Counted from the stretch's first letter, positions 12,915-63,800 are shown. The stretch: DNA of 64,000 bases from Acutalibacteraceae bacterium (GCA_050953725.1 JBMNNB010000003.1:463244-527243); one strand, 5' to 3'. Translations and numbers: made by a program. The notes: generated by a model from the sequence alone, not told the origin.

Positions 12915-13272
12915 GCGCAGCGGGATATGACGAGCCGGCGGGGGGGCGCGGGTCGCAGGGTGAAGGCGGGGCGCAAGACGCAGGTGAGACGGGGTGAAGG
13001 GCGGCAGGCAAGTTGCCCGCTCCCCTCGCCTGCAAGCACGGTGTGGCGAACATCGGGTCGGGGCGCAGGCGGCGGGGGGTGCGGGTCGCAGGGTGCGGGT
13101 GCGGGCGGCGGCGGGGAGTGCCGTTGCGGGAATGGCGGGGCGGGAGTACCTCTCCCACGGGCGGGGGCGCAGGCGGCGGGGGGGCTGCCGTTCCATTCGG
13201 GGTTGGGGCGTGGTGCGGGGAGAAACAGCGGAGGGGTTGCTTTTCGCTTTCCTTTGGCTGGGGGGGTGGGCT
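12915..13272. repeat. G+C-rich, G-skewed repeat island A
   Basis: GGCGGGGGG(C/T)GCGGGTCGCAGGGTG occurs at about 12937 and 13070. GGGGCGCAGGCGGCGGGGGG occurs at about 13060 and 13165. All six frames give P/G/R/A-rich low-complexity ORFs. Confidence 0.8.
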
Positions 13273-13449
13273 TTGTGAAAAAAGAATATGCTGTTTTCTA
13301 AATAAACTTTCACAAACACTCTGCTTATGTTATAATGTTATCAGGTTTTCGGCGGTCTGATTGGGGTAATTATCAATCGGGCTGCTTTGGGTATAATAAA
13401 TGCCGGCATACGGCTTCTCACAATCGTAGATAAAATAGGATGTGAATAA

Positions 13450-14142
13450 GTGACGCAAAATCAGAAAGACACCGCAGTGGCGCTTATTAAAGCCGCTGTT
13501 GCCATGACCCTTTTCTTTATCGCAATTTTCAATTACAACGACCTTCGTAATGTGGATGTTGAGGGCATTGTGGCAAAGGCGGGCAGCATATATTCGGCGG
13601 CCCTGGTAGTGCTTATAATCTTCTTCGTAAAGGCAGTTTTGTTTATATTGCCCGCATCTTTAATCTATGTTGCGGTGGGCGCCGCCCTTTCGCCGATTGA
13701 TGCGGTTATCATAAATCTTCTGGGCATCGTGCTTGAGGTGACGGCCACTTACCTCCTCGGCCTCTTTCTCGGCGGAGCCTATGTGGAAAAGCTCCTCAGC
13801 AAGCGTAAAAAGACCCGCAAGCTTCTCGAAATGGAGCTTCAGAACAAGCCTCTGCTGCTTCTGGGCATACGCTTTCTGCCCGTCTTCCCCATTGACTTCG
13901 TAAGCCTTTTTTACGGTGCTTCAAAGGCGAATTTCCTTAAATACCTTCTGCTGTCCGTGGCGGGTCTTGCCCCACGGGTCATAGCATTTACAATACTCGG
14001 CGATGCGATTTTTGAGAAAATCCCCATGCACATAATTATCCTCGTTGTCATCTGCCTTATCCCCGTTTTCGCCGGCTGGACACTTTTCAAGAGCTTTGTG
14101 CTGGACAGGAGAAGACAGGAAAATCAGCCCCGCCCTGAGTAA
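13450..14142 (+). CDS. TVP38/TMEM64 (DedA-superfamily) membrane protein
   Basis: 230 aa, multi-TM, with LRFLPVFPIDFVSLFYGASK-type segments typical of SNARE-associated/DedA-like proteins. GTG start is uncertain. Confidence 0.5.
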   Translation: MTQNQKDTAVALIKAAVAMTLFFIAIFNYNDLRNVDVEGIVAKAGSIYSAALVVLIIFFVKAVLFILPASLIYVAVGAALSPIDAVIINLLGIVLEVTATYLLGLFLGGAYVEKLLSKRKKTRKLLEMELQNKPLLLLGIRFLPVFPIDFVSLFYGASKANFLKYLLLSVAGLAPRVIAFTILGDAIFEKIPMHIIILVVICLIPVFAGWTLFKSFVLDRRRQENQPRPE

Positions 14143-14211
14143 GCGACATTATTTTCTTTTGCATCGGTCTAAACTTATAGCAACCCGGCTTAAAATGCGA
14201 AATAAGCTTTT

Positions 14212-21694: not shown

Positions 21695-21839
21695 GTAATC
21701 AGAACCGAACAAATGTTCTGTTTGTGCGGCGAATCCCCGAACAGGAAAACCAAAAGTGGGGAGGATTAGCCTTCACGCTTAAAGCCGAAATCAATAGCCC
21801 CGTTGATTTCTTCCGCTCAGAAGCCGGGCTGCCCCTCTT

Positions 21840-22400
21840 GCCCTCAACCTGTATAAAGCGTCGCCCCGTGCGGCGGGCGGGGGGTGCACGAACGCCGAAC
21901 GGGTGCGGGCGGCAACAAAGCCCCGTGGTCGCTTTGCCCTTTTGGAGTATCGCCTATCCAGCGTGGGCGGGCGGAAATTGTACCGCACGCCGGCGGGCGG
22001 GGGTTGCCCCACCGTTGGGGGGTGCGAGAGGTGAACGCAAAGCCCCGTGTTCGCCTTGCCCCGATTGAAGCGTGTTGCCTATTCCGTGCGCGGGCGGGCT
22101 GGGGGGGTGCCCCACCGTCGGGCGGGTGCGAGAGGTGAACGCAAAGCCCCGTGGTCGCCTTGCCCTTTAGCGGTTGCCTATCCAGCGTGGGCGGGCGGAA
22201 ATTGTACCGCACGCCGGCGGGCGGGGGTTTCCCCTCCGTTGGTGGGAGGGGAACAGATACAAAACCCCGTGTTCGCCTTGCCCCGGTTGAGGTGTTAACC
22301 TACCCTTGCAGCGGGCGGGCTGGGGGGGTGCACGAACGCCGAACGGGTGCGGGCGGCGGACAATAAGCCCCTTGTTCGCCCTGCCCCGTGTTTCAGGCTT
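21840..22400. repeat. G+C-rich tandem-repeat island B (five 100-125 bp modules, super-period about 222-224 bp)
   Basis: TATCCAGCGTGGGCGGGCGGAAATTGTACCGCACGCCGGCGGGCGGGGG starts at 21955 and 22179. GTGCACGAACGCCGAACGGGTGCGGGCGGC starts at 21884 and 22328. GTGCGAGAGGTGAACGCAAAGCCCCGTG starts at 22022 and 22126. Confidence 0.85.
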
Positions 22401-22545
22401 ACCCTTTGCCCCGTGTGACATACACTTTACTTTGCCCCGTTTGAGTGTATGCGCTGTACCCCGTTTGCCTTTTTGCCCCGTTTGGGGTGTGACAATTCGC
22501 CCCGATTTCCACTCGTTATAAGCCCCGTTAAATAAGAACTCCCGT
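22383..22545 (+). repeat. iteron-like ladder of 8 direct (T)TGCCCCGT(T/G) boxes
   Basis: GCCCCGT-type cores start at 22383, 22408, 22434, 22458, 22475, 22499, 22522 and 22540, giving spacings of 25, 26, 24, 17, 24, 23 and 18 bp. Confidence 0.75.
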
Positions 22546-22728: not shown

Positions 22729-23166
22729 ATGAAGCATAAGAACATTCACATAAACTGCGAGCTGATTGCCGACGATTCGCAGCTTGAGGCTCTCAGAAAA
22801 ATCGAGGAGGACTGCTCAGGCCTCGGCAAGCGGCGTCTGAATCTCACGGAGCTTATCAGCATCGCCATTCGTGACGAGCTGACCGAGGCGGAAAGAAAGG
22901 CCGTAGAGCTTTTCTGGTTCAAGGGTCTGAAGGTCAGCGAAGCCGCCCGTTACTTAGGCGTCAGCAGCGCAACGATAACAAAAACCCTTGACAGAGCAAA
23001 GCTCAGGCTCTTCAACGCACTGAAATATGCCGTGCTTTACAGTCTTGACCTGACGGACTGCCCGGAGATTACCGAAAACGCCTCGGAAATCGCCAGAAAC
23101 GCACAGCTTTTCATCTGCCGAAGGCCTGACAACAAAAATCCCACCGAAAGGGCTGAGAAAACTTGA
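22729..23166 (+). CDS. sigma-70 region-4-like HTH regulator (phage late-gene activator-like)
   Basis: RKAVELFWFKGLKVSEAARYLGVSSATITKTLDRAKLRLFNAL is a sigma region-4 type HTH. GAGAGGA lies 8 nt before ATG 22729; the listed start 22597 lies in non-coding-looking sequence. Confidence 0.6.
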   Translation: MKHKNIHINCELIADDSQLEALRKIEEDCSGLGKRRLNLTELISIAIRDELTEAERKAVELFWFKGLKVSEAARYLGVSSATITKTLDRAKLRLFNALKYAVLYSLDLTDCPEITENASEIARNAQLFICRRPDNKNPTERAEKT

Positions 23167-23387
23167 GCACAAAGTCACTTGCTGCCCTTGCGGGCGAATA
23201 CATAGAGAGCGCAAGGCTGCAGACTCAGATTATAAACAAGTACAACGAGCGAAAACGAGAAGCTTTAAAGAGCCGCAACAGGGATGAGCTGCTTGTCTGC
23301 TCAAGGGCTCTTGCCGTTTTGTATTCCGCAAGGCGTGATTTGCTCGAAACTGCGGATTTACTTAGCAGTTACTATGACCGAAGCTGA
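23163..23387 (+). CDS. small helical protein, unknown function (phage-associated)
   Basis: 74 aa. TTG start overlaps the stop of the upstream gene, suggesting translational coupling. Confidence 0.4.
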   Translation: MSTKSLAALAGEYIESARLQTQIINKYNERKREALKSRNRDELLVCSRALAVLYSARRDLLETADLLSSYYDRS

Positions 23388-23403
23388 ATTGTGAGGTTTT
23401 AAT

Positions 23404-24099
23404 ATGTTAATGAGAGATATAGAAATTGAAATAAGCGACGGGCTGCAAAGCCCCATTACCGTCGAAAACGCCGGCTTTGCCGGTGAGCACAACGCCGCCT
23501 GCCTTGTCTTTATTCCCGATGAGAGCTTTAATACTACGGGCTTAAAGTTTTATGTGGAGTATCAGAACAGGTCGGGCAGAACAGTGAGAAGCCATTATCT
23601 CGAAGAGGACATCTTCGGCAAGATTCGCTTCCCGATTCCGTCCGAAATAAGCTCACAGCTTCTCTGCGAATGCACCTTCAACATCGTGGAGTTTGACGGC
23701 TATGAGCTTGTGAAAAAGGCAAAGCCCATAAAGATTATTCTCAAGTTCGTCCCCTCCCCCGATGCGGCGGCCATTTACGGGGAAGGCTCCGGCGTTGCCT
23801 TTGAGGAGCTTATCGAGCTGCTGGGCAGCATCGGCAAGGGCATTTTCAGGTACGAAAAGGCTGTCAATCCCTCAAGCTGGACATTCAGGGACAACATTTA
23901 CAGGTGCACTACGCCCGCAAGCGAGCACAAGCTCGGCGAAAAGGCGGCGCTCGTTTTGTCCGAGGCCGCAGACGAAGAAGGCTATAAGGGAGTCACCTGC
24001 GCTTATTACAGGGAAGCAGACGGCGATGTGGTGGTTCTGTCCCATGTGCCATTTGAGGGACGGCTTGTCTTTTCTCTGTCCGAGGACAGGATTCATTAA
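23404..24099 (+). CDS. phage-associated protein, unknown function
   Basis: 231-aa ORF with an RBS-like GTGAGG upstream. Lies in an operon with a tail-fibre-like gene. Confidence 0.5.
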   Translation: MLMRDIEIEISDGLQSPITVENAGFAGEHNAACLVFIPDESFNTTGLKFYVEYQNRSGRTVRSHYLEEDIFGKIRFPIPSEISSQLLCECTFNIVEFDGYELVKKAKPIKIILKFVPSPDAAAIYGEGSGVAFEELIELLGSIGKGIFRYEKAVNPSSWTFRDNIYRCTTPASEHKLGEKAALVLSEAADEEGYKGVTCAYYREADGDVVVLSHVPFEGRLVFSLSEDRIH

Positions 24100-24119
24100 T
24101 TAAGGAGTAGGATGTTGAG

Positions 24120-24953
24120 ATGATAAAGCAGATAAGGCTCGGAACCGAGCCGCTTCAGAACATAAATGACATAAACTCGAATTTCAGCACTCTGGACAGC
24201 AGCATAAACGCCCTGAAGCCCGGTCAGCCCGGCGGCGTTGCGACCCTTGACAACGGCGGAAAGCTGAATAAGAGTCAGCTGCCGCTTATAGATGCGGTAC
24301 CAGTCGAAAAAAGGGAACTGCTCCCCCTTTCGCACATAGGCTATGAGCTGCCTTCAGAAGCGCCGGAGGACAGCTATTGCTATCAGCTGTCAGAAAACAA
24401 GCTGTATCGCCGTCAGGGCGGCGAATGGCTCGGCCCCTATGAGCCGATGACCGACAAGCTGTATATCGGCCCGTACTACGACCAGCTTTACTGGTGCGCA
24501 GGGGACTTCGGTCTGCTGGAGTTAATCTATGAGCCGCCGAACCTCAATACCCTTCTGAAAATAACCGCTTCCGCCACCCCGCCCTATAACCTCACATATA
24601 ACGGGGACCCGCTCATGCAGCACTATAAGGACTACTGGACATACAAGGACATTGTAAAGTTCACTGCTGTAAGCGGCTGGCCGGACATTGAGGGCAACCT
24701 CGGAGATATGGCCTATGACGCCGCCGCAAAGACCCTTTACGTCTATACGGCATGGGGCTGGGACGAGGTAATCTGCGACAGCGAGGCAAGCGAATACTAC
24801 CCGCCCACCTTTGCGGATTTTATCGTAAAAAAGCCGGGGCTTCTGTTCTTTGACAAGGAGAACTCAAGGCTTTACGGCTTTACTGCGGACATTGTCAGGG
24901 ATGAGAACGACGAGGCTGTGAAGATTGATATTGAATTAATACCTGTAAGCTGA
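24120..24953 (+). CDS. phage tail-fibre-like protein
   Basis: AAGGAG RBS. N-terminus INSNFSTLDSSINALKPGQPGGVATLDNGGKLNKSQLP matches the common GGVA-LD-GK-LP motif of phage fibre proteins. Confidence 0.55.
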   Translation: MIKQIRLGTEPLQNINDINSNFSTLDSSINALKPGQPGGVATLDNGGKLNKSQLPLIDAVPVEKRELLPLSHIGYELPSEAPEDSYCYQLSENKLYRRQGGEWLGPYEPMTDKLYIGPYYDQLYWCAGDFGLLELIYEPPNLNTLLKITASATPPYNLTYNGDPLMQHYKDYWTYKDIVKFTAVSGWPDIEGNLGDMAYDAAAKTLYVYTAWGWDEVICDSEASEYYPPTFADFIVKKPGLLFFDKENSRLYGFTADIVRDENDEAVKIDIELIPVS

Positions 24954-24997
24954 CGGCGGCTGTTTTTGCAATTTATTCTTTGAAAGGAACAAGACGC

Positions 24998-25663
24998 ATG
25001 TTTAAGAATAATATAGAATTAGCAGCATGGTGCAAGGAGAAGGCAGGTTGTCCGTATTGGTACGGCACCTTCGGACAGACAGCCTCTGAGTCCCTGCTGC
25101 AGCAGAAAAAGGCGCAGTACCCGAAGCATTACGCTGACAGCAGGCTTAAAAAAATGCGCAGTCATTTCGGACGTCAGGTCTTTGACTGCGTGGGTCTGAT
25201 AAAGGGCTATGTATGGGAGCAGGGAGGCAAAATCATATATGACCCGGCTCAGGATGTCAGTGCCGATGCTATGTACCTGCGCTGTACCGAGAAGGGCGAC
25301 ATTAATACCATGCCCGAAATTAAGGGCCTGCTTGTCTTTAAAAAGGGGCACACGGGAGTATATATAGGAGACGGCAGGGTGGTAGAGGCCAAGGGCTTTG
25401 ACTACGGAGTCGTGATATCAAAGCTTTCCGGCAGCGGCTTTACGGTATGGGGCAAATGTCCCTTCATAACCTATCTCGAAAAATACGATGTTGACGGCGA
25501 CGGCAAGGTCACTCCCGCCGATGCAAGAGCAGTATTGCGCCACAGCGCAAGGCTCATTAAGCTGACCGCCGCCGAACAATACTCTGCTGATGTGAACTCC
25601 GACGGCAAGGTTGACGCTGCCGATGCAAGGCTGATAATGCGGCAATCACAGGGTCTGAGTTAG
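24998..25663 (+). CDS. NlpC/P60 (C40) peptidoglycan endopeptidase with C-terminal dockerin-like repeats (endolysin)
   Basis: Catalytic Cys context FDCVGLIKGY and His context GHTGVYIGDG. Two Ca-binding repeats: DVDGDGKVTPADARAVLRHSA and DVNSDGKVDAADARLIMRQS. Followed by XhlA-like and holin genes. Confidence 0.75.
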   Translation: MFKNNIELAAWCKEKAGCPYWYGTFGQTASESLLQQKKAQYPKHYADSRLKKMRSHFGRQVFDCVGLIKGYVWEQGGKIIYDPAQDVSADAMYLRCTEKGDINTMPEIKGLLVFKKGHTGVYIGDGRVVEAKGFDYGVVISKLSGSGFTVWGKCPFITYLEKYDVDGDGKVTPADARAVLRHSARLIKLTAAEQYSADVNSDGKVDAADARLIMRQSQGLS

Positions 25664-25687
25664 CTGTGCTTCAAATGAGGTGGATTA

Positions 25688-25981
25688 ATGGAAATATCGG
25701 AAAAGCTGTGGGATGAAAGCAGACGAGGTATTGAGGCACGCTTTGAAAGAAACGAGAGGGACATTGACGAGCTGTATAAAAGGCAGTGCGAAATCGAAAA
25801 GCTTTCGATTCAGATAGGCGAAATGCTTAAAAATCATCACAAGACGCAGGAAGACCACGGCAAAAGAATAGAAGCTCTGGAGAAAAGACCCGTAAAGTTC
25901 TTTGACAAGATAGTAAGCGGCATAATAGGTGCGGCGACAGGCTCTCTGACGGGAGCATTGATTTCGCTGTTCATCAAATAG
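25688..25981 (+). CDS. XhlA-like lysis accessory protein (coiled coil plus C-terminal TM)
   Basis: 97 aa. N-terminal coiled coil and C-terminal TM helix IVSGIIGAATGSLTGALISLFI. GAGGTGG RBS. Sits between the lysin and holin genes. Confidence 0.5.
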   Translation: MEISEKLWDESRRGIEARFERNERDIDELYKRQCEIEKLSIQIGEMLKNHHKTQEDHGKRIEALEKRPVKFFDKIVSGIIGAATGSLTGALISLFIK

Positions 25982-26029
25982 CCTGCCGCTGCTTCTTTCC
26001 TTTACGGAAATCCGCTGAGGAGGTTTATA

Positions 26030-26281
26030 ATGGAGATACTTCACTATTTAACGGAACATTCGCTTGTGCTGGTTCCGGCTTTATTGATTATAGGACAGAT
26101 AATAAAAGAGATAGAGAAAATTCCGGATAAATTCATCCCCCTCATTTTGCTGCCGATTGGCATCTTAGGCGCAGTGGGGATTAACGGACTCAGCGCAGAC
26201 TCGGTACTTCAGGGAATCCTGGTTACCGGCGTCAGCGTATACGGAAACCAGCTTGTGAAGCAGCTTAAAAAGCCGGAATAG
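26030..26281 (+). CDS. phage holin
   Basis: 83 aa with 2-3 TM helices and a charged C-terminus KQLKKPE. GAGGAGG RBS. Adjacent to the lysin. Confidence 0.65.
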   Translation: MEILHYLTEHSLVLVPALLIIGQIIKEIEKIPDKFIPLILLPIGILGAVGINGLSADSVLQGILVTGVSVYGNQLVKQLKKPE

Positions 26282-32209: not shown

Positions 32210-33556
32210 TTAGTAAACTCCCTGTGCTATCATAGCATCCGCAACCTTTTTAAAGCCTGCTATGTTTGCACCTGCTATCAGGTTGTATCCGAAGCCGTAC
32301 TCCTCTGCGGCCCTTGCGCTGTTAAAGTGTATGTTCTTCATAATTTCCATCAAAAGCTCGTCGACAGCGTCTGCAGTCCAGCTTCTGCGCTCGGAGTTCT
32401 GGCTCATTTCAAGGGCGGAGACCGCTACGCCGCCTGCGTTGGCCGCCTTTGAGGGAGCGACTGCCCTGAGATTTTCGGAGAGGTAGCCGAGAGCGCCGTT
32501 GGAGGTGGGCATATTTGAAACCTCGATGTAATACTTTACGCCGTTAGCAACGATTTTCTTTGCATCCTCCATGTCGACCTCGTTCTGCGTGGCGCAGGGC
32601 ATGATGATGTCGACCTTTTCGCCCCACGGCTTCTGGCCGGGATGGAAGGAGGCGCCGAACTCCTTTGCATAGTCCGAGAGCTGTACGTCGCCCACATAGC
32701 GAAGTCTGTTAAGGTAATCGAATTTTTCCTGTGTGTTTACGCCGTTTTTGTCGTAAACATAGCCCGTCGGGTCGGAGATAGTTACGACCTTTGCGCCGAG
32801 CTGGGTTGCCTTAACCGCAACGCCCCATGCCACGTTGCCGTAGCCGGAGATAGCTATGGTCTTGCCCTCAAGACTGTCGCCGAAGTGTTTAAGCACCTCG
32901 TTTGTATAATATATTGCTCCGAAGCCCGTAGCCTCGGGACGAAGCAGGGAGCCGCCGTATTCAAGTCCCTTGCCGGTGAATACTCCGTTCTCGAAATTGC
33001 CCCTGATTCGTTTGTACTGTCCGAAGAGATAGCCGATTTCCCTGCCGCCGACGCCTATGTCGCCTGCGGGAACGTCCGTGTCCGGACCTATATGGCGGTA
33101 AAGCTCTGTCATAAAAGCCTGACAGAAGCGCATTACCTCGCCTTCGCTTTTTCCGATGGGGTCAAAGTCCGAGCCGCCCTTGCCGCCGCCTATGGGCAGG
33201 CCCGTAAGGCTGTTTTTAAAGACCTGCTCAAAACCGAGGAACTTTATTATGCCGGGATAAACGGAGGGGTGAAAGCGGAGTCCGCCCTTGTACGGGCCTA
33301 TCGCACTGTTAAACTGCACCCTGTAACCGGTGTTTACTCTGATGTTGCCGCTGTCGTCTGTCCAGCATACTCTGAAGGAAATGAAACGCTCGGGCTCAAC
33401 CATGCGGGCGAGAATATTGTACTTCTCGTATTCGGGATGCCTTGCTATTACAGGCTCAAGGGAGGTGAAAACCTCCTCTACCGTCTGTAAAAACTCAGGC
33501 TCGTTTGCATACTTCTTTTTTGTGTCACTGATAACCCTTGCTATGTACTGATTCAT
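32210..33556 (-). CDS. gdhA: NADP-specific glutamate dehydrogenase
   Basis: 448 aa. GLPIGGGKGGSDFDP active-site region and a Rossmann motif (ISGYGNVAWG). Confidence 0.9.
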   Translation of the reverse strand: MNQYIARVISDTKKKYANEPEFLQTVEEVFTSLEPVIARHPEYEKYNILARMVEPERFISFRVCWTDDSGNIRVNTGYRVQFNSAIGPYKGGLRFHPSVYPGIIKFLGFEQVFKNSLTGLPIGGGKGGSDFDPIGKSEGEVMRFCQAFMTELYRHIGPDTDVPAGDIGVGGREIGYLFGQYKRIRGNFENGVFTGKGLEYGGSLLRPEATGFGAIYYTNEVLKHFGDSLEGKTIAISGYGNVAWGVAVKATQLGAKVVTISDPTGYVYDKNGVNTQEKFDYLNRLRYVGDVQLSDYAKEFGASFHPGQKPWGEKVDIIMPCATQNEVDMEDAKKIVANGVKYYIEVSNMPTSNGALGYLSENLRAVAPSKAANAGGVAVSALEMSQNSERRSWTADAVDELLMEIMKNIHFNSARAAEEYGFGYNLIAGANIAGFKKVADAMIAQGVY

Positions 33557-39358: not shown

Positions 39359-39392
39359 AAATATTTCAGATGAGACCAAATGGAATAAAAGT

Positions 39393-40140: not shown

Positions 40141-40172
40141 TCATTTGTGCGTTTTTTTGCCGTAGTTGCTTA

Positions 40173-50308: not shown

Positions 50309-52438
50309 TTAAAGTGTCTGGAGCTTTGCGGCTACACGAAGGATTATTCGGGCATCGGAGGCTTTGACGCCTGCCTCGCCGTCTGTGTTGGCCGAAAGCT
50401 GTTCAAGCTCGCCGAGGGTGGTTAATTTCGCCGCATGCCTTAATACCTGCCTTGCATCGCTTGCCAGAACCTTGCCGTCGCCGTCAATATCGCCGAGGAC
50501 AGCCAAAGTGAGCGTATCGACTACCTTGCCGCCTGCTATCAGATTAAGCTTTGCGCCCGAGCCGAAGGTCTTATCGCCTGACAGCAGCGTTCCGTTTTTG
50601 TCTCTCACTTCGAGTGTGCCGCCCTCAAAGTTCTTTAACAGGTCGCTTACCTTAGTGCCGGGCTTGACATTATAGACTATAGAGCCTGAGGTATTGAGCT
50701 TATATCCTGCGCCTGATTTCATTTTTATTACAGGCTCCTTAACGGTTACTGTGCATTGGGCTGTCTTGCTGCCGTCTGTTGTGGTTACGGTTATTACGGT
50801 CGTTCCTGTGCTTATGGCGGTAACAACGCCGTTTTCGTTAACCGTTGCAACCGCAGTGTTGCTCGAAGACCATGTGACTCTTTTATCAGTGGCGTCTGCG
50901 GGCGAAACTGTGGCATTCAGTGTTTTAGTCTCGCCGACACTCATTGTAAGGCTTGTCATGTTAAGGCTGACACCTGTGACAGCTATCTCGAGAGCGACAT
51001 GGGAAAGCCCTGCCAAGGTGGGATAGGGGTAGGCTGCCGAAGAGTCAATCATCCAGACAGTATCAAAGTCAAAACCGCCAAAACTCGCCGAATTTCTCAT
51101 CTGAGCATCGGTTAATGCAACCCCGAAGGAGTTTGTGGGATTTGAGACACTGGTATTAAGATAATAGCAGTTTGATATTGTGGAGGAGGAGTTAAATCCA
51201 ACCACGCCGCCGACCTCATTTATGCCCGAAACACTGCCGGTGTTATAACTGTCTGTGACTGTGGAGAAGAAGTTAGCTCCAACCACGCCGCCGACATAAT
51301 AAGAACCTGAAACCGTGCCGCTGTTATAGCTGTCTGTTACTGTGGCTCTGGAGTCGTTATGTCCGACCACGCCGCCGACCTCATTTATGCCCGAAACACT
51401 GCCGGTGTTATAACTGTTTGTCACTGTGGAGTTGTAGTAGTTATATCCCACCACGCCGCCGACATAATAAGAACCTGAAACCGTGCCGCTGTTATAGCTG
51501 GCTGTCACTGTGGAGTTGTCGTAGTTATATCCAACCACACCGCCGACATAATTGTTGCCCGAAACACTGCCGGTGTTATAGCTGTTTGTTATTGTGGAGC
51601 CGAATTTGTTATATCCAACCACGCCGCCGACAAAATAAGAACCTGAAACCGTGCCGCTGTTATAGCTGTTTGTTACTGTGGAATTCCGTTCGTTATATCC
51701 AACCACGCCGCCGACCTCATTTATGCCCGAAACACTGCCGGTGTTATAGCTGTCTGTGACTGTGGAGAAGAAGTTAGCTCCAACCACGCCCGCCGACCTC
51801 ATTATAGCCGGAACACAGCCTGCAAAACCGCATTCGAACAACGTGCCTTCATCGTTGTAACCGACAATGCCGCCGACAGATATATAGCCTTTGATATAGG
51901 ACATCTCAATTTCGACTTCTGAAACTGAGCCCTTAACAATCATTCCGAAAAACCCCTGATACGATTCATCGGTATCAATGTATATTCCGCTGATTTTGTG
52001 GTGGTCGCCTCTGTAATGTCCGTAAAAGGTAAAAGCTCTGTCGGCAATACTTCCGCCCGGATTATAGATAGCCTTGCCTATTGGCTTCCATTGTTTCGGG
52101 GACTTGCCCGCAGCTATGCCGGTTACCCTGCCGTCGCTGTCAAAGGTGAACATATCCTGTGTGTTCAGCACTATGTCCGCCGTCTGTTCAAAGTATTTGC
52201 CCTCTGAGTAATTTTTTATTTCCTGTGTGTTGACTGAAAGCTGAGCCAGATCCTTCGCCGTGGCGATTTTGTACGGGTCCGTTTTTGTTCCCTTGCCGCC
52301 CGAATATTTGGCGCTGCCGTTCACTGCGGGGAACGTGCCGTCCCAGACGCTTTGGGCCGCCGATGATTGAATTGACACAAAACCGATTAAAATCGCAAGA
52401 CACAGCAAAACCGCAAGACTTTTTCTGATTGCTTTCAT
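50309..52438 (-). CDS. secreted GLUG-repeat / Big_2 / dockerin surface protein
   Basis: Signal peptide MKAIRKSLAVLLCLAILIGFVSIQSSAA. About 10 GLUG-type repeats (VGGVVGYN...NSYNTGSVSG). One Big_2 domain (VTGVSLN...TVTV). C-terminal dockerin (GDIDGDGKVLASDARQVLR, NTDGEAGVKASDARIILR). GGAGGGG RBS before ATG 52438. Confidence 0.85.
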   Translation of the reverse strand: MKAIRKSLAVLLCLAILIGFVSIQSSAAQSVWDGTFPAVNGSAKYSGGKGTKTDPYKIATAKDLAQLSVNTQEIKNYSEGKYFEQTADIVLNTQDMFTFDSDGRVTGIAAGKSPKQWKPIGKAIYNPGGSIADRAFTFYGHYRGDHHKISGIYIDTDESYQGFFGMIVKGSVSEVEIEMSYIKGYISVGGIVGYNDEGTLFECGFAGCVPAIMRSAGVVGANFFSTVTDSYNTGSVSGINEVGGVVGYNERNSTVTNSYNSGTVSGSYFVGGVVGYNKFGSTITNSYNTGSVSGNNYVGGVVGYNYDNSTVTASYNSGTVSGSYYVGGVVGYNYYNSTVTNSYNTGSVSGINEVGGVVGHNDSRATVTDSYNSGTVSGSYYVGGVVGANFFSTVTDSYNTGSVSGINEVGGVVGFNSSSTISNCYYLNTSVSNPTNSFGVALTDAQMRNSASFGGFDFDTVWMIDSSAAYPYPTLAGLSHVALEIAVTGVSLNMTSLTMSVGETKTLNATVSPADATDKRVTWSSSNTAVATVNENGVVTAISTGTTVITVTTTDGSKTAQCTVTVKEPVIKMKSGAGYKLNTSGSIVYNVKPGTKVSDLLKNFEGGTLEVRDKNGTLLSGDKTFGSGAKLNLIAGGKVVDTLTLAVLGDIDGDGKVLASDARQVLRHAAKLTTLGELEQLSANTDGEAGVKASDARIILRVAAKLQTL

Positions 52439-52554: not shown

Positions 52555-52582
52555 ACAAAAAAGGGCCTTCGAAGAAGGCCCT
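52555..52582 (-). terminator. Rho-independent terminator retained behind the dockerin gene remnant
   Basis: AGGGCCTTC (52562-52570) pairs with GAAGGCCCT (52574-52582). The minus strand continues TTTTTTG. Confidence 0.75.
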
Positions 52583-52599
52583 GAATGCTGTGTTTACTG

Positions 52600-52694
52600 T
52601 TAAAGCGTCTGGAGCTTTGCGGCCACACGAAGGATTATTCGTGCGTCGGAGGGTTTTACACCCGCCTCTCCGTCAGTGTTGTCGGGAAAGACAT
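52600..52694 (-). pseudogene. 3'-terminal remnant of a dockerin-protein paralogue
   Basis: About 90 bp, roughly 80% identical by eye to 50309-50400. Translates to FPDNTDGEAGVKPSDARIILRVAAKLQTL*, versus ANTDGEAGVKASDARIILRVAAKLQTL* in the intact gene. Similarity stops abruptly at repeat island D. Confidence 0.8.
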
Positions 52695-52835
52695 GGCGGG
52701 TGGGGATGCTGTCCTCTCCCTCGACTGTGCTGACGGAAGCGGATGGGGTGCGGGGCGGAACGCCTCCCCTTTTCCCGTCATGGAGGGGACGAGGGGCGTA
52801 CAGGCTGGGGTGGAGCGGATTCTGCCGTTAGGAAC
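52695..52835. repeat. G+C-rich island D (short member of the family)
   Basis: G-rich + strand with GGGGTGCGGGGCGG, CTCTCCCTCG and GGAGGGGACGAGGGGCG. Lies between the gene remnant and the CDGSH terminator. Confidence 0.55.
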
Positions 52836-52868
52836 AAAAAACGGCGGGAGGGGTTACCTTCCGCCGTG
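52834..52868 (-). terminator. Rho-independent terminator (CDGSH gene)
   Basis: ACGGCGG (52841-52847) pairs with CCGCCGT (52861-52867). The minus strand continues with T6. Confidence 0.65.
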
Positions 52869-52907
52869 TGGGTTATTCTGTTGGTCTGAGTTTTGCCTTT
52901 GGGTCTG

Positions 52908-57953: not shown

Positions 57954-58409
57954 CTAAATCTCCAAGGGTGAAGAATAGCCGCCGTTCGGATTTCGCACTA
58001 TATCCGCCCTGAGAGTCACGAAGCCGACCATTTTTATGCTGTCGGTCAGTCTTACATACTCCATCTTGCCGCTGCCGATTTCGAGGATGTCGAGATTTGT
58101 GTTAAACAGCAGCAGGTCCGTAATTTCAGAGAAAATCGTATGAAGCCTGTATCCGCCGATTCGCACGGGGTTATGTATGCTTATGTCGAATGTAGCTATC
58201 ATCTCCATAACGCCGTGTACCTTCTCGCCGTACTCGTCGTACTTCTGCTTTATGCTGGAGCTTTTTACGCCGATTGCAATGGTCGGGGCGATAATCGGCT
58301 CATTGTTCTGCCAGCGCGGGAACTCGGTCATAAGGTCATAGCCCTTGCCGTCAAGCTGCAGCGCCAGCCAGTTTTTAAGAGTTTCGGGAAAGGAATCAGT
58401 TATATACAT
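57954..58409 (-). CDS. phage head-tail joining region protein (unknown family)
   Basis: 151-aa ORF overlapping the upstream gene by 14 nt. Last gene of the head module. Confidence 0.45.
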   Translation of the reverse strand: MYITDSFPETLKNWLALQLDGKGYDLMTEFPRWQNNEPIIAPTIAIGVKSSSIKQKYDEYGEKVHGVMEMIATFDISIHNPVRIGGYRLHTIFSEITDLLLFNTNLDILEIGSGKMEYVRLTDSIKMVGFVTLRADIVRNPNGGYSSPLEI

Positions 58410-58743
58410 CTTGCCCCTCCATATCCTTTATTACCGCCCAGATATAGAACACGCTGTTGCCCTTATAGATTTTCTCGAATCTGTCCACAAGGAATCTCTT
58501 GCCCGCAGACTCGATATAATAGCCGCTCGGCAGATGCTCAAAGCTGTGCTCCGGGGGACCGATGTAAAGATAATAGCCGGAATCGATAACGCCGATTTCG
58601 GTGGGCGTTCCCTCAAGATACATCTTGTTCTTATATCTGAGCGGCTGTATGAAGGCTCTGAAGGACTTTGTGCTCCAGCCCGTTGTGTCCTTAATCCGGG
58701 TGTCCCTGCCGTATTTAGATAAAATCGCATTTACCGCTGCCAA
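58396..58743 (-). CDS. putative head-closure / head-tail adaptor protein
   Basis: 115 aa. Assigned by position after the gp6-like connector. Confidence 0.4.
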   Translation of the reverse strand: MAAVNAILSKYGRDTRIKDTTGWSTKSFRAFIQPLRYKNKMYLEGTPTEIGVIDSGYYLYIGPPEHSFEHLPSGYYIESAGKRFLVDRFEKIYKGNSVFYIWAVIKDMEGQDVYN

Positions 58744-58768
58744 AAAAGCACCTCCCCTTATTTGCCCG

Positions 58769-59131
58769 CTATATTCGCCCGAATAAAAAGGCGTCGTCCT
58801 TTAAAAGATGCGCCGCCTCCTTAAAGGCCGCCGCCTCAAGGTCTGAGGCTGCCTGAAGGGTCTCCTTATAGCCCTTTTTGACCGTCACGTCCCCTGCCCT
58901 GAAGCTTGTGAACTCCTGGTCTGTGGCGGAGCGTGAGAGCAGGAACCTATGCAGGGCAGTCATGGCGCAAAGCATGATAATGAGCTGATTACCCGAATCC
59001 CTTTTGTATTTAAGCCGACGCTCAACACTCAATGCCGCAGCCTTGCAGAAGGGCAGCAGGGCGGGTGCATCCTCGTCCGATATGCTTATCACCTGCCTGA
59101 GCCTTTCAAAAACCTCCCACTGACTTATCAT
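58769..59131 (-). CDS. gp6-like head-tail connector protein
   Basis: 120 aa. N-terminus ISQWEVFERLRQVISISDEDAPALLPFCKAAALSVERRL is typical of the phage gp6-like connector family. Lies directly after the capsid gene. Confidence 0.55.
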   Translation of the reverse strand: MISQWEVFERLRQVISISDEDAPALLPFCKAAALSVERRLKYKRDSGNQLIIMLCAMTALHRFLLSRSATDQEFTSFRAGDVTVKKGYKETLQAASDLEAAAFKEAAHLLKDDAFLFGRI

Positions 59132-59185
59132 AAACTCACCTTTTTCTTAAAATCTGCCCTGTACCTGTCGGCACAGGGCAAGGGC

Positions 59186-60199
59186 TTATGCTCTCTCCAG
59201 AACGATAACCTTGGAGGCGTCGTCGAAAATCTTGGAGAAGCCGAAGGTGCAGGTGATGGCCGCTCTCTCAAGCTGTCTGTCAATGAGCTTGTCATACTCG
59301 GTCACAATGCCGCCGGCTCTTACCAGCTCAAGGGCGCAGTTTTTGTCAAGGCCTATAAGGACATCCGCAGCGAAGGAGGGGATTTTGACAAGCTCTGCTC
59401 CGAGGGGTGTCACGAGCTTGCCCGTGGCGTGGAAGGAAAGTCCCGCAACGGAGTCTCTGAACTCCTCCATGGCAAGTATCGTCCTCAAGACTTCGGGCGT
59501 GGCGAGTATGGCGTTGAGCTCATAGGGGTCGAACTTGCCCCAGAAATCAAGAAGGTCTGAGTAAGTAAGAACGCCTTCCTCCTTTGTATCCACGATTTCT
59601 GCCGGATTTTCGTTGCCGTCGCCTAAGAGAATGGTGGCAATGGCGTGCTGAACCTGACTTCTTGCAATCTGTGCGCCTATCTGCTTTAAGGTGACGGTGA
59701 ACAGGTCAATCCTCTGGAAGCGGATAGCTTCGTATGAGGCCACAAGCATCCTGCCCATTTTCTTTAGGCGGACAAGGTTCTCCTTGGTCTTGATGCTGGT
59801 TTCGGGGATAATAGCGCCCTCGGCAACCATTTTAAGCTCCTTGTCGTCCTCTGAAGGAATGGAGGTGATTGTCCTGTAATCAAGTGCGTCGATGTCTGTG
59901 ACCGTTGCGACGATTTTCGGGAGGATATTCGCATCCTCCATGCCCTGCCTTACGGCGCGGGAGACATATTCGGGGAAGAGGGCTGCGGACTCGGAGGTAC
60001 TGAAGAACTTCTCTACCTTGTCGCTGCCGGGGCCGCCCACTCTGATGTCGAATCTTTTAAGCTGACGCTGGTATGCGTCAAGACCCTCAAGGGCGGTACC
60101 CTTGTAATTCTCGGAAGGGTCAAGTGCCTCAAGAGCCGCCGTAAAGCCGCCCTTTGCCGAGTACATGCCCTTTTCGAGCCTGATGTTTTCATAAGACAT
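59186..60199 (-). CDS. major capsid protein
   Basis: 337 aa counted from ATG 60199 (GAGAGGAG RBS). Assigned by position after the protease/scaffold and small head protein. Composition is typical of a capsid protein. Confidence 0.65.
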   Translation of the reverse strand: MSYENIRLEKGMYSAKGGFTAALEALDPSENYKGTALEGLDAYQRQLKRFDIRVGGPGSDKVEKFFSTSESAALFPEYVSRAVRQGMEDANILPKIVATVTDIDALDYRTITSIPSEDDKELKMVAEGAIIPETSIKTKENLVRLKKMGRMLVASYEAIRFQRIDLFTVTLKQIGAQIARSQVQHAIATILLGDGNENPAEIVDTKEEGVLTYSDLLDFWGKFDPYELNAILATPEVLRTILAMEEFRDSVAGLSFHATGKLVTPLGAELVKIPSFAADVLIGLDKNCALELVRAGGIVTEYDKLIDRQLERAAITCTFGFSKIFDDASKVIVLERA

Positions 60200-60218
60200 A
60201 GTATTTCTCCTCTCTGAA

Positions 60219-60563
60219 TTAAAGAATAATTCCGATTGTGCCGTCTGTCTCGTTGACACTGAGAATAAAGACCTTGCGGCCGCTGTCGTCTATGGAGACG
60301 GCGCCGTCGTCGGCACCTGTAATGCCCTGATAACCGACGCTTGCATCCTCAATGTTCGCACAGGGTAAGGTGGCAAAGCCGCCCACCTGAACAGCCGCAT
60401 AGCCCTCCCTGACGCTTAAAGCAAGTCCGAAGACATCGGTGCCTTCAGAAGCGGCTGTGACCTCGTTGTTGCCGGAGATGCTGACTGCGACGCCCGCCGT
60501 AACCGAATCCGAGGCCTGCAAGGTAATAATTTTCTCGTCAAAGCCTTTTAATGAAACTAACAT
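60219..60563 (-). CDS. small head protein (decoration or scaffold-associated?)
   Basis: 114 aa, beta-rich, lying between the protease/scaffold and capsid genes. Confidence 0.35.
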   Translation of the reverse strand: MLVSLKGFDEKIITLQASDSVTAGVAVSISGNNEVTAASEGTDVFGLALSVREGYAAVQVGGFATLPCANIEDASVGYQGITGADDGAVSIDDSGRKVFILSVNETDGTIGIIL

Positions 60564-60581
60564 AAAAACATCCTTTCTTAC

Positions 60582-61556
60582 TTAAATTCTGAACCCGCTG
60601 TTGTCGGGTGAGGCTGTTTTAGCCTCGGGAATAAGCTGAGGAGCAAAATCAAGGCCATCCTCATCCGCAAAGCCCTTAACAAGTGCTTCCAAATCCTTTG
60701 CGGGAAGGCTTTCCAGAACGGTTTTGAAAACGGCGGTGTCCATTTTGGGCAGCCTTACTGCCGACAGGGACAGCGCCTTTTTCATAAGGCTGCTTTTGTA
60801 ATGCTCGCCGTCCGCAGCCGCCCTTTCGAGGGTTGCGATATAGCTTTTAAGCTGCGCCGTTTCAAAGGCGTCGAGCACCGTTTCACCCTTTTGCTCACCG
60901 AGTTTTTTAAGTATGTCTGTCACGCTTTTTTCACCTCTTTTGCTTTCCTCTGTTTTTCCGAACTGCTTTGTTACACGGGCGCCCTTCTGGGCGGGAACCG
61001 CTACAAAGGACCACTCGTATGCGTCGACAGCATCATAGAGAATCCTGTGACACAGCCTGCCCTCGACCTGTGTGCCGGGTCTGTGGGAGCAGGAAGAGTT
61101 TTCCGCCTTACAGACAGAGCAGACAGCCCTTTTGACACTGCAGGATACGCTGACCTCACGCTTAATGCCCGCTTCGATTTCAGCTATCAGGCTCTTGTTT
61201 TTTTCGTTTCTCAGCATATAGCAGTGTGCCTTGAGATAGGTATAAGGCTCCCCTGCGGAGGTTGTCCGCTCTTTGTCCGTAATAAGCTCAGTGTCGAATA
61301 TCCTTGCGGTCTGGTTTTCGGCCCTCATGCTGTGGTCGAAGATGCCCGTCACGCCCTTGAACAGCTCCTTTAAGGCTTTAAGGCTCTCAACAGAGAAGCG
61401 CTCAAAGTCCCTGTCTATCTCGTTGTCACAGAGGATGACGCTGAAGACGAAGACCTCCTCCTCAGACAGCGGCTTTAAGGAGTAGCTGTTGATTTTCTCA
61501 ATGTCCGATTTCGTAACGGAAAAAACAGCTTCATTTAATCTCTTTTCTTTTTTCAA
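60582..61556 (-). CDS. prohead protease / scaffolding protein
   Basis: 324 aa, immediately after portal with a 4-nt overlap. The N-terminal half has DRDFERF...GIFDHS and a Cys cluster; the C-terminal half is helical and scaffold-like. Confidence 0.5.
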   Translation of the reverse strand: MKKEKRLNEAVFSVTKSDIEKINSYSLKPLSEEEVFVFSVILCDNEIDRDFERFSVESLKALKELFKGVTGIFDHSMRAENQTARIFDTELITDKERTTSAGEPYTYLKAHCYMLRNEKNKSLIAEIEAGIKREVSVSCSVKRAVCSVCKAENSSCSHRPGTQVEGRLCHRILYDAVDAYEWSFVAVPAQKGARVTKQFGKTEESKRGEKSVTDILKKLGEQKGETVLDAFETAQLKSYIATLERAAADGEHYKSSLMKKALSLSAVRLPKMDTAVFKTVLESLPAKDLEALVKGFADEDGLDFAPQLIPEAKTASPDNSGFRI

Positions 61557-62749
61557 AAAGTTTCCTCCTGTTCCGTTAAGCTCTCATCAGTGACGATTTC
61601 AGGCTCTAACCCCTGCTCGATTTCGGCGGCTCTTGCGTTGTTGAGCCTTGCCTTTGACAGCTCCACCTCGTCCTGAAGGCTGATTTCGTTCCACTTTACA
61701 GAAAAGCCGCCTTTAAGGCCGTTAAGCCTGATATACGTGCCGACGACCCTCTGAAGCACCGGATTTAAAAGCTTTCTGTAAAACTGCAGCTCGCTTGTGA
61801 GCATGTCGGTCTGCTGGGCGGCCATTCGCTCCGTGGTGGACCAGTTAAGTCCCAGCATAAAGGGCGGCAGGCCGAGCTTTGCTATTATCTGCTCGAGCAG
61901 CTGCCTGACGGGGACCTCGCTGTCAAGAACCTGATTGTCCGCACCGATTACTTTGATGTCCACATCGCCCACGGCAATGAAGTCCTTGATTTCGCTGCCG
62001 CTCTGCATGGCCGCCGACCACTCGGAGGCAATCTGCATGGCCCTCTCTTTGGCGTAGAGCTTGTCATTAGGGTCGTTCTTCGGTCTGTAAGTCACCGCAT
62101 AGCGCAGATTCCCCACACGCTCGAAGTTAAGGCCGATTGTGTTGTAAATCTTCATCAGCACACTGCTTATAAATGGCAGACCCTTTAATATGGAGTTGCC
62201 CTGAAGGCTGCCCGCATCGGGATTTAGCAGTGTCAGAAGGATAAGCTCCTGATGCCGCACGGGTACGGGCTGTGAGCCGGTCATGGTGCAGACAAGCACC
62301 TTTGAGCTGTCACTCTTGTCCCTTGTGAGCACTATGTCCCTTAAATCCGCCCGATACAGCGACATTTCTGCGGGCGAAGCCCTGCCCGGAAGGATTTCGG
62401 CCACCGCAGTGCCGTATGTAAGAAGCTGCTCGAAATAAGCGCTTACGAAGCTGTGAATACCCCGCTGGCAGCCGTCGACGACCACATTTTTCAGAAATTC
62501 ATCGACCTGCCTTTGCGTGTATGAGTTCTCGCAGCGAATCTCAAAGCCGCCTATGAGCCTTGCTAACTTCCTTATGCCCGCATCGATAATGGGAACGCTC
62601 TCTCTGAGGGTCTTGTAGAGATTTGCGTCGCCGTGAAAGCTGCACATATTCATATAGTCATCGAAAAAGCTCTTCTGCCCTTTAGCCCTTGTCTGGGGAG
62701 CGGCTGCCGCCCCCGTTGATAAGGGCTCTTTTTTGCTGAACAGTCCCAA
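61553..62749 (-). CDS. phage portal protein
   Basis: 398 aa, with size and position typical of portal. TTG start follows GAGGTG. Confidence 0.7.
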   Translation of the reverse strand: MGLFSKKEPLSTGAAAAPQTRAKGQKSFFDDYMNMCSFHGDANLYKTLRESVPIIDAGIRKLARLIGGFEIRCENSYTQRQVDEFLKNVVVDGCQRGIHSFVSAYFEQLLTYGTAVAEILPGRASPAEMSLYRADLRDIVLTRDKSDSSKVLVCTMTGSQPVPVRHQELILLTLLNPDAGSLQGNSILKGLPFISSVLMKIYNTIGLNFERVGNLRYAVTYRPKNDPNDKLYAKERAMQIASEWSAAMQSGSEIKDFIAVGDVDIKVIGADNQVLDSEVPVRQLLEQIIAKLGLPPFMLGLNWSTTERMAAQQTDMLTSELQFYRKLLNPVLQRVVGTYIRLNGLKGGFSVKWNEISLQDEVELSKARLNNARAAEIEQGLEPEIVTDESLTEQEETF

Positions 62750-62865
62750 ATTCTCACCTCAATTTTCAAAATTAACCCCAGCCCGCCCATTAAACTGCGA
62801 TGGCAGAGCGCAGGGTGTCGGAAAGCCCGAACCTCCGCAACGCATGGAAAGCCCTGCCCTGAACC

Positions 62866-63800
62866 GAACCTAAGTCAAGCCCCGTTTGCCGCCCCGCACA
62901 TCAGACGGCGGAGGGGGGAAGACGGCGGAGGGGGAAAGGCGGCGGGAGGGGGGGCAACGGGAAACATTGACCCCGTACACCGCATGCCGCCCGCCTGTCC
63001 GCCTACAAGCGGCGTGGGGGGGGTGGAGACGTAGCACCGCACACCGCAATCCCGCATGCCCGCCGACGGTGATTTCTTTTTTCTTCCCGCCCCGCAAATC
63101 AGGCGGCGGAGGGGGAAGACGGCGGAGGGGGAAAGGCGGCGGGAGGGGGGCAACGGGAAACATTGACCCCGTACACCGCATGCCGCCCGCCTGTCCGCCT
63201 ACAAGCGGCGTGGGGGGGGTGGAGACGTAGCACCGCACACCGCAATCCCGCATGCCCGCCGACGGTGATTTCTTTTTTATCCCCGCCCCGCAAATCAGAC
63301 GGCGGAGGGGGAAGACGGCGGAGGGGCGGGAGGGAAACCCGACGCCGCAATCCCGCATGCCCGCCGACGTGATTTCTTTTTTCCCCGCCCCGCAAATCAG
63401 ACGGCGGGGGGGGAAGAGGCGGAGGGGGCGGGAGGCGAAAAGCCCGCACACCGCAATCCCGCATGCCCGCCGACGGTGATTTCTTTTTTCTCCCCGCCCC
63501 GCACATCAGACGGCGGAGGGGGAAACGGCGAAAAGGCGGCGAGGGGGGGCAACGGGAAACATTGACCCCGTACACCGCATGCCGCCCGCCTGTCCGCATA
63601 CAAGCGGCGTGGGGGGGGTGGAGACGAAACCCCGCACGCCGCAATCCCGCATGCCCGCCGACGGTGATTTCTTTTTGCTCACCGCCCCGCACATCAGGCG
63701 GCGGAGGGGGAAGACGGCGGAGGGGGCGGGAGGAGAAAAGCCCGCACGCCGAAAACAGGAAAAACCCTGCCCCACGCCGCCCCGCCTGCCGCACTTCCCC
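62866..63800. repeat. G+C-rich tandem-repeat island E (six units: three long of 188-198 bp, two short of 102-109 bp, one partial)
   Basis: GCCCCGCA(C/A)ATCAG anchors at 62891, 63089, 63285, 63387, 63496 and 63684. Five of the six units end in GGTGATTTCTTTTT(T), or a 1-nt variant. About 70% G+C in line 63001-63060 (hand count 42/60). Confidence 0.9.

Follow-up and report, generated by a model that had tools for sequence, protein, structure and literature searches.

Dispersed G+C-rich intergenic islands in an Acutalibacteraceae bacterium: an apparently undescribed class of length-variable spacer DNA without a consensus sequence

The stretch analysed here, a 64,000-nt segment of the genome of an Acutalibacteraceae bacterium (GCA_050953725.1, JBMNNB010000003.1:463244-527243; hereafter the window, whose positions are used for all coordinates), has a mean G+C content of 50%. 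Its genes include a gene for a 1408-amino-acid (aa) protein and a divergent VTT-domain gene, a gene for a sigma-region-4 helix-turn-helix (HTH) protein, a beta-galactosidase gene, a dockerin gene and a phage-derived terminase-portal operon. In gaps beside these genes lie five G+C-rich islands, A to E (Table 1). The original prediction had proposed five such islands from the sequence, and the base composition bears them out, the G+C content being 61-68% in the islands versus 50% in the window and 42% in the remaining non-genic DNA. The islands are thus a real, unusual and apparently undescribed feature, and the class is set by composition and behaviour, without a consensus sequence.

Table 1. 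Positions and base composition of the islands and of the features adjoining them. Detector bounds, G+C content, G/C skew and numbers of homopolymer runs of at least 4 nt (G versus C, plus strand) refer to the islands; the sister species is described in the text.
Feature	Position	Strand	Detector bounds	G+C	G/C skew	Runs (G vs C)	Remarks
Promoter-like site TTGAAA-16-TATAAT	12721-12748	minus					Serves the 1408-aa gene (8407-12633); outside island A; surroundings kept in the sister species
Island A	12915-13272	none	12871-13300	0.68	+0.34	14 vs 2	G-rich spacer (plus strand G 0.51, C 0.24) flanked by divergent promoter-like sites
Promoter-like site TTCACA-16-TG-TATAAT	13309-13336	plus					Serves the VTT-domain gene (13450-14142); outside island A; kept in the sister species
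Island B	21797-22541	plus	21761-22460	0.65	+0.07	7 vs 16	12 direct (G/A)CCCCGT boxes; upstream of the sigma-region-4 HTH gene (22729-23166)
Island C	39393-40112	none	39371-40350	0.63	+0.24	17 vs 6	G-rich spacer directly behind the beta-galactosidase terminator; ends before the AAA_14 promoter
Tandem duplication in island C	39466-39871	none					203 nt x 2.1, 99% identical; private to the source strain
Intrinsic terminator of the beta-galactosidase gene (40173-43235)	40113-40141	minus					AGGGACGCATCATGCGTCCCT followed by a T-run; kept in the sister species
Dockerin-gene remnant	52598-52688	minus					Copy of the last ~30 codons of gene 50309-52438, 86-88% identical
Island D	52695-52835	none	52611-52890	0.61	+0.23	7 vs 1	Short G-rich stretch between a terminator and the gene remnant
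Island E	62750-63816	none	62771-63970	0.67	+0.01	17 vs 18	Unskewed G+C-rich spacer between the terminase large-subunit stop (63817-63819, minus) and the portal start (62749)

The composition of the islands is also asymmetric between the strands. The hexamer GGGGGG occurs 34 times on the plus strand of the window, 31 of them inside islands, and CCCCCC is absent from that strand. All six canonical G-quadruplex motifs (G3+N1-7, four times) are on the plus strand and within islands A, B, C and E, two of them in A; there are none outside the islands and none on the minus strand of the window. Islands A, C, D and E had been described as G-rich on the plus strand. The skews of A, C and D agree with this description, and that of E, in which runs of G and of C are almost equally frequent, does not.

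Tandem duplications of about 100-220 bp, first described for every island except D, were found in B, C and E. The left part of island B (21863-22400) is expanded into G+C-rich units of 104-122 nt arranged in 224-nt dimers. The tandem array of island E (62889-63726) consists of 196- and 102-nt units in ~6 copies, and the spacer around it (62750-63816) is wider than the bounds first given for E (62866-63800). Island A contains scattered imperfect direct repeats only, with a 23-nt period and with 68% identity at a spacing of 133 nt, and island D has no internal tandem repeats. The tandem units of B, C and E are mutually unrelated, and in the periodicity analysis of the islands only lags of 3-7 nt stood out.

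The original prediction had also regarded the five islands as one repeat family. Every string that it quoted was found where it had been reported. CCGGCGGG has five occurrences in the window (12935, 21990, 22214, 39443 and 40000), all of them on the plus strand and none outside A, B and C. The 13-mer CCGCTCCCCTCGC is present at 13017 in A and at 39939 in C, and GCCCCGTGCGGC at 21863 in B and at 39582 and 39785 in C. Islands B and C match at 18 of 19 nt, and GCCGGCGGG is present in five copies confined to A, B and C, located at the left edge of A and C. The five islands, however, could not be aligned as one family, and D and E match nothing. Strict local alignment gave z values of at most 3.0 against dinucleotide shuffles for every island pair on both strands. 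When each island was used as a query for nhmmer, A found C (E = 4e-4) and B and C found each other (E ~0.008); D and E as queries matched no island. Gap-tolerant alignment showed island A to be colinear with the right part of C (39872-40150) over ~300 nt, with a score of 60 versus a null of 31 +/- 7 (z = 4.5), which was reached by none of 300 nulls. The same method gave z = 5.1 for segments B2 and C2 of islands B and C. A match of B2 to an island of the sister species (F, see below) on the opposite strand had z = 3.8, which is below its null maximum, and all remaining cross-island pairs were below 3. Only the A-C2 and B2-C2 pairs therefore exceed composition-matched nulls. A profile hidden Markov model (HMM) built from A and C2 recovered no further island in 2.4 Mb of sequence.

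Shared words lead to a similar picture. Same-orientation sharing of k-mers of 8-12 nt exceeds the expectation of order-1 and order-2 Markov models (z of 3-9). It is not above that of an order-3 Markov model of each island, and opposite-orientation sharing is at chance level. A strand-specific vocabulary (GGCGG, GCGGG, CGGCGGG, GTGCGGG) is common to the islands. The k-mer sharing is therefore attributable to a shared vocabulary of 4-7-mers, that is, to cryptic simplicity. Taken together, the alignment, HMM and k-mer results indicate that A, B and C retain traces of common descent or sequence exchange, which are weak, patchy and confined to the same strand, and that the five islands together are a composition class.

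The islands are present in independent assemblies; about 30 same-species contigs (~99% identical; ENA, JGI, Logan and NCBI) carry them. Island A was found in 8 independent assemblies, which differ in the length of G-runs and in a 65-nt deletion between direct repeats. The spacer that holds B measures 794, 1212, 1213 and 1311 nt in other strains versus 1217 nt in the window, a difference of ~420 nt being seen, and L006 has a deletion of 21939-22314 of the island. Island C shows no single-nucleotide polymorphisms (SNPs) in seven strains. Its length is 683 nt in five strains, 736 nt in L186 owing to a 53-nt duplication, and 886 nt in the window owing to the 203-nt duplication. The spacer that holds E is 277, 306, ~473, 495 or 1067 nt long among strains, corresponding to one, three and ~six units. 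Pooled over strains, indel positions make up 0.96% of the islands versus 0.058% of the flanks, a 17-fold difference; SNPs make up 0.83% versus 0.32%, the value for the islands being inflated by mis-paired units of B and E. Within the species, the islands are thus fixed and stable in sequence and unstable in length, through tandem duplication or deletion of blocks of 45-220 nt. Many short-read contigs end in E or C.

These islands are non-coding, because the strain indels (1-2, 53, 65 and 203 nt) are not multiples of three and the 10 open reading frames of the islands had no match in Pfam. The islands are neither RNA genes nor classical mobile elements. The prediction that they belong to no known element class agrees with searches of Rfam and of plasmid and phage collections, none of which gave a match: Rfam had none at the gathering score in the whole window, and blastn found none for C in plasmids or for E in phages. 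At E <= 1, Rfam searches of the single islands returned three chance-level matches to microRNAs or frameshift elements, far below threshold. No tRNA or transfer-messenger RNA was found. RNA folding of 10 segments on both strands gave z values of -1.65 to +1.6 against dinucleotide shuffles, with no excess structure. No inverted-repeat pair flanks any island, in agreement with the reported lack of terminal inverted repeats, and the window contains no transposase, reverse transcriptase or REP-associated tyrosine transposase (RAYT). No description of such islands was found in the literature on the assembly accession and on G-rich intergenic repeats in Clostridia.

The window was compared with a sister species, the nearest other lineage, represented by metagenome-assembled genomes from anaerobic digesters including 'Clostridiales bacterium DTU053', which is syntenic with it. 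Protein identities between the two are 81% for asparagine synthase, 80% for the portal protein and 75% for beta-galactosidase. At site A, between the 1408-aa and VTT genes, the sister species has no island and keeps the flanking promoters. Conversely, the gap between the convergent PHP and 1408-aa genes (site F), which here contains two abutting terminators, holds a 340-nt island in the sister species. Between the terminase large-subunit and portal genes (site E), the spacer is 277-1067 nt long here versus 71 nt in the sister species. Between the small and large terminase subunit genes (site G1), 17 nt here correspond to a 330-nt island there (G+C 0.66-0.69), and between the genes for a binding protein and a zf-CDGSH protein (site G2), 95 nt correspond to an island of ~190 nt. 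At site D, the whole segment that here comprises the island, the Glug/dockerin gene and its remnant is missing from the sister species, leaving a gap of 73 nt. Only the site behind the beta-galactosidase terminator (C/H) carries an island in both species; at the six other of the seven comparable sites an island is found in one species alone. Islands E and G1 are inside the phage-derived terminase-portal operon, and related faecal phages have the terminase gene directly adjoining the portal gene, with no spacer.

Islands of the window and of the sister species have no sequence relationship. Even at the shared site, between island C and its counterpart H (L203 13101-13390), which is C-rich in the sense direction of the gene, two patches of similarity are left (z = 0.7). 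Searches by blastn with all eight islands against the 2.4 Mb of loci gave only chance matches of 20-37 nt. No target-site duplication is obvious when the filled and empty sites A and F are compared, the species being too diverged for base-exact junctions. Per 100 kb, a crude detector of such islands found 7.8 and 7.1 candidates in the two species and 1.9 elsewhere, in an outgroup sample of ~2.4 Mb from ~160 loci of other relatives. The candidates of these relatives that were inspected were coding sequence or different hairpin repeats, and none was an island of this kind. On the basis of the site comparison and the outgroup scan, the class is therefore confined to a small clade, within which its positions turn over. 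The hairpin repeats, seen in other Oscillospiraceae (L062/L109 2100-2500; L175 5071-5300), are G+C-rich and intergenic and are unrelated to the islands; their units end in CGCCCCTACGG or are centred on GGATTGCC...CGCAATGAC.

The gaps filled by the islands contain neither promoters nor ribosome-binding sites nor terminators. Each of islands C, D, F, G2 and H starts ~0-15 nt from an intrinsic terminator and does not reach the promoter or terminator that follows; F and H are located between convergent genes. The beta-galactosidase terminator was read directly from the sequence; the consensus scanner overlooked it. Island A lies upstream of both of its divergent promoter-like sites. Several islands adjoin scars of rearrangement: D abuts the dockerin-gene remnant, which has its own terminator at 52562-52582, C abuts a cassette carrying an AAA_14 gene, and B abuts a cassette whose one searched protein (277 aa) has no relative in the database.

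Read in the direction of the upstream gene, C, D, F, G2 and H have C fractions of 0.36-0.43 and G fractions of 0.25-0.28; E and G1 have about as much C as G and no skew. This composition is close to that of third codon positions. On the sense strand, the latter have A, C, G and T fractions of.17,.37,.25 and.21 in this species and.16,.39,.25 and.20 in the sister species. The corresponding values are.17,.42,.25 and.17 for the minus strand of island C,.19,.43,.25 and.14 for the minus strand of D, and, in the sense of the upstream gene,.17,.39,.26 and.18 for F and.22,.38,.26 and.14 for H. Thus C, D, F, G2 and H resemble third positions, and A is more extreme. The excess of C over G at third positions is found on the sense strand of genes in both orientations, with a four-fold-site skew of -0.36 and a third-position G+C content of 0.62 (window genes; L197, L203). 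This asymmetry is unusually large and is tied to transcription or codon usage.

Three other explanations were considered and rejected. A replication-strand cause of the skew is contradicted by a replication term of +0.07 in the first half of the window and -0.02 in the second, versus a coding-strand term of -0.20. Hypermutation by A-to-G editing does not fit islands in which A and T are about equally frequent. Decay of a pseudogene as the sole origin of island D is at odds with the adjoining remnant, which is still 86-88% identical to its paralogue. The cumulative G/C skew of the window peaks near 30 kb, and the third-position replication term changes sign weakly between the two halves.

Several known classes of repeats resemble the islands in part. 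Mycobacterial interspersed repetitive units (MIRUs) are intergenic bacterial minisatellites, or variable-number tandem repeat (VNTR) loci, with a recognisable unit consensus common to loci across the genome. Islands B, C and E are similar in that head-to-tail non-coding units lie in intergenic or intra-operon gaps and vary in copy number among strains. Unlike MIRUs, each island has a sequence of its own, a non-repetitive G+C-rich core and a strong G/C strand asymmetry, and the positions turn over between sister species. The islands fail the test of a MIRU-type family because there is no shared unit. Repetitive extragenic palindromes (REPs) and bacterial interspersed mosaic elements (BIMEs) are short imperfect palindromes present in many near-identical, G+C-rich intergenic copies, often behind terminators. 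The islands are likewise G+C-rich, intergenic and often behind terminators, but they have no palindromes, consensus or excess folding energy, and the REP/BIME test fails because there is neither palindrome nor consensus. Miniature inverted-repeat transposable elements (MITEs) do not fit because terminal inverted repeats are lacking. The layout of clustered regularly interspaced short palindromic repeats (CRISPR) was not seen either, the units being contiguous, 45-220 nt long and without unique spacers.

Rho utilization (rut) regions of Rho-dependent terminators are ~70-80 nt of G-poor RNA with more C than G, defined by composition and poorly conserved. The excess of C over G in the sense of the upstream gene directly behind the terminators of C, D, F, G2 and H recalls such regions, and any Rho dependence here is putative. 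The islands differ in being 140-1000 nt long, ~25% G, polymorphic in length and mostly not kept at orthologous sites. Among eukaryotic minisatellites, human CEB1 and CEB25 are G+C-rich, subtelomeric and G-quadruplex-forming, with short regular units (PMC3486850, PMC5491262). These minisatellites and the islands alike have a strand asymmetry in G, carry quadruplex motifs, show cryptic simplicity and are unstable, gaining and losing units; the islands differ in being bacterial and mostly not regular arrays, with quadruplexes predicted from motifs. G-rich heptamer simple-sequence repeats of Xanthomonas and Nostoc are described as regular 6-9-nt repeats with quadruplex potential and enriched in particular lineages (PMC4692102). 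The islands share with them a prokaryotic host, G-richness, quadruplex potential and lineage enrichment, and differ in being complex and largely non-periodic. The islands therefore behave like VNTR or minisatellite loci and fail the defining tests of MIRUs, REPs/BIMEs, MITEs, CRISPR arrays and any Rfam family.

How could such islands arise? We tentatively favour, at somewhat less than an even chance, the interpretation that they are lineage-restricted, labile and largely unconstrained non-coding spacer DNA, minisatellite-like and prone to form G-quadruplexes, which is occasionally copied. New islands would arise when island DNA is now and then copied into another gap, which would explain the patchy similarity among A, B and C; alternatively, short G/C-rich sequences would serve as seeds. 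Replication slippage or unequal recombination at the many G/C-rich microhomologies of the islands would then lengthen or shorten them. Their composition may drift to the equilibrium of synonymous sites, free of the constraints that hold ordinary intergenic DNA A+T-rich; the resemblance of the islands to third codon positions suggests such a drift under the substitution bias of synonymous sites. Any effect of an island would be exerted through its composition, for example on read-through transcription, and not through a motif.

Several points weigh against this interpretation. Bacterial DNA under no constraint should be lost by deletion and should drift to A+T, so that 61-68% G+C needs an extra force, for which biased gene conversion, selection on composition and an expansion bias are candidates. 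The beta-galactosidase site is occupied in both species, with the composition kept and the sequence almost lost, as if composition were under selection. The skewed islands all have the same orientation, which would not be predicted from a purely neutral process. Since E and G1 have no skew, the analogy with third positions is not universal, and the third-position bias itself may reflect codon selection and not mutation. The non-repetitive cores of ~200 nt are not accounted for by the proposed origin. Finally, in a strain with 1.5% divergence in the flanks, not one SNP is present over 637 nt of island C.

Some of these observations would be explained if the islands were fail-safe terminators or insulators coded by composition, an interpretation that we regard as rather unlikely. 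RNA leaking past the intrinsic terminator of an upstream minus-strand gene would be C-rich and relatively poor in G and would load Rho, or a G-rich, quadruplex-prone template would stall RNA polymerase, protecting the downstream or convergent gene. The location of C, D, F, G2 and H immediately behind intrinsic terminators, with C-richness in the sense of the terminated gene, agrees with such a role, as does that of F and H between convergent genes. The beta-galactosidase site keeps its composition while its sequence diverges, as expected of Rho loading sites. If C-rich tracts were harmful within operons, the lack of skew in E and G1, which are both operon-internal, would be expected, and all six canonical quadruplex motifs are on the plus strand, which is the template for minus-strand genes. 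It would be odd, however, if a terminator that is needed were not the same in two syntenic sister species at six of the seven orthologous sites, and other Oscillospiraceae do without such islands. A G content of ~25% is not 'G-poor', and island A lies between divergent promoters with no upstream gene on the minus strand. Moreover, the upstream genes are all on one strand, so that gene sense and a regional strand effect are inseparable.

The view of the original prediction, extended to a mechanism, is that a single non-autonomous mobile repeat gave rise to all the islands, as decayed copies moved in trans by some other function and diverging fast through indels. This would account for the colinearity of A with the right part of C, the B-C alignment, the nhmmer match of A to C, the strings shared among A, B and C, and the occupation of different sites in the sister species. 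The similarity of D, E and all sister-species islands to the others is in composition only, however, and the model built from A and C2 recovered nothing beyond them. The k-mer sharing needs no more than an order-3 Markov model. Terminal inverted repeats are lacking, the comparisons of filled and empty sites show no visible target-site duplication, and the window has neither a transposase nor a reverse transcriptase. We consider this explanation unlikely.

It is similarly doubtful that a clade-specific process makes G+C-rich, strand-asymmetric intergenic DNA, or that the islands are sequence-free, composition-coded terminators which are rapidly gained and lost. Candidates for such a process are biased template-independent or slippage synthesis and the loss of a helicase that removes quadruplex-prone DNA.

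Island B raises the further idea that the islands are operator- or iteron-like clusters bound by a regulator such as the adjacent sigma-region-4 HTH protein. This is plausible for B only, and for the islands as a whole the chance appears slim. Cores of GCCCCGT or CCCCGT had been reported in B, C and E. They are enriched in B, where 12 CCCCGT boxes lie on the same strand within 732 nt (21797-22528) upstream of the HTH gene versus ~0.3 expected from the window-wide rate, and they are at about chance frequency elsewhere. The boxes in the right part of the island lie in ordinary sequence at intervals of 16-26 nt, and the array extends to ~22541, past the bounds first given (21840-22400). A single TTGCCCCGT box at 12757, ~15 nt upstream of the -35 element of the 1408-aa gene, is kept in the sister species and would also fit. 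Islands A, C, D and E, however, have no regularly spaced repeated site and no periodicity beyond lags of 3-7 nt. The neighbourhood of B is not comparable across species because the 277-aa protein of the adjacent cassette, the one cassette protein that was searched, had no relative but itself among 5.8 billion sequences.

That the islands are artefacts of assembly or sequencing, as might be suspected from the short-read contigs that often end at them and from a 100-N gap at A in an NCBI scaffold, is refuted by the many independent assemblies that read through A, B, C, D and a shorter E with near-identical sequence, and the chance of it is negligible.

That scaffold, GCA_900198705.1 (FZPS01), has 100-N gaps (L001 5830-5929 and 12723-12822; L142), one of them exactly at island A. 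Its gene order conflicts with that of the window, in which two genes 388 kb apart in the scaffold are 42 kb apart. It looks like a concatenation of contigs. Another contig of the same project is present in the metagenome collection. One strain has an extra block (L005 12059-14258) with a WYL-domain gene and four small genes between the asparagine synthase and rhamnosidase genes.

Some neighbouring genes are worth noting in their own right. The AAA_14/DUF4143 ATPase gene beside island C (38097-39287) lies in an A+T-rich segment (38037-39358; 38-41% G+C) flanked by 35-nt inverted repeats (38037-38071 and 39324-39358) that are 86% complementary. The gene is missing from the sister species, and the segment looks like an inserted cassette. 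The cassette that follows island B (22729-26044) encodes the sigma-region-4 HTH protein, proteins of 74, 231 and 277 aa, an NlpC/P60 and dockerin protein and a phage-type holin. The dockerin (Glug/Big_2) gene near island D contains coding 84-nt tandem repeats in ~7 copies (51190-51804) and is missing from the sister species; the remnant copy of its last codons lies 2.3 kb away. A gap of 32% G+C (33501-34000) separates the divergent genes for glutamate dehydrogenase and pyruvate:ferredoxin oxidoreductase. A metagenome scan with the 1408-aa protein was swamped by a low-complexity pattern, a search of IMG/VR for relatives of the portal protein was unproductive, and no database record was found for the exact beta-galactosidase and long-form capsid proteins.

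Island E belongs to a phage-derived, head-only cluster (window 57954-64000, minus strand; L096 5383-12246; L197 7850-14760). It comprises genes for the small and large terminase subunits, the portal protein, proteins of 324 and 114 aa, a major head protein (phrog_3922) and three small proteins, with no adjacent tail, integrase or lysis genes. The cluster occupies the identical chromosomal place in both sister species, with a glycogen operon on one side and an ABC transporter on the other. Its head-only content and shared place suggest that the element has been domesticated or is a relic. For the portal family there are more than 5800 relatives, of which many lie on long chromosomal contigs and some carry the wrong label 'serine/threonine protein phosphatase'.

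For practical work, the islands interrupt the short-read assemblies and scaffolds of this lineage, an uncultured one from gut and digesters, and they would be usable as high-resolution strain markers. Their wider interest lies in the composition itself. Bacteria are thought to purge useless DNA and to drift to A+T; here, in two sister species, spacers of 140-1000 nt with 61-68% G+C persist, change in size and relocate. If they act on transcription, there would be terminators defined by composition alone. If instead they are the largely unconstrained spacer DNA that we favour, they would show the composition reached by neutral DNA in this lineage, which matches that of third codon positions including the strand asymmetry, and this would bear on the question of what sets synonymous G+C content, mutation together with biased gene conversion or selection.

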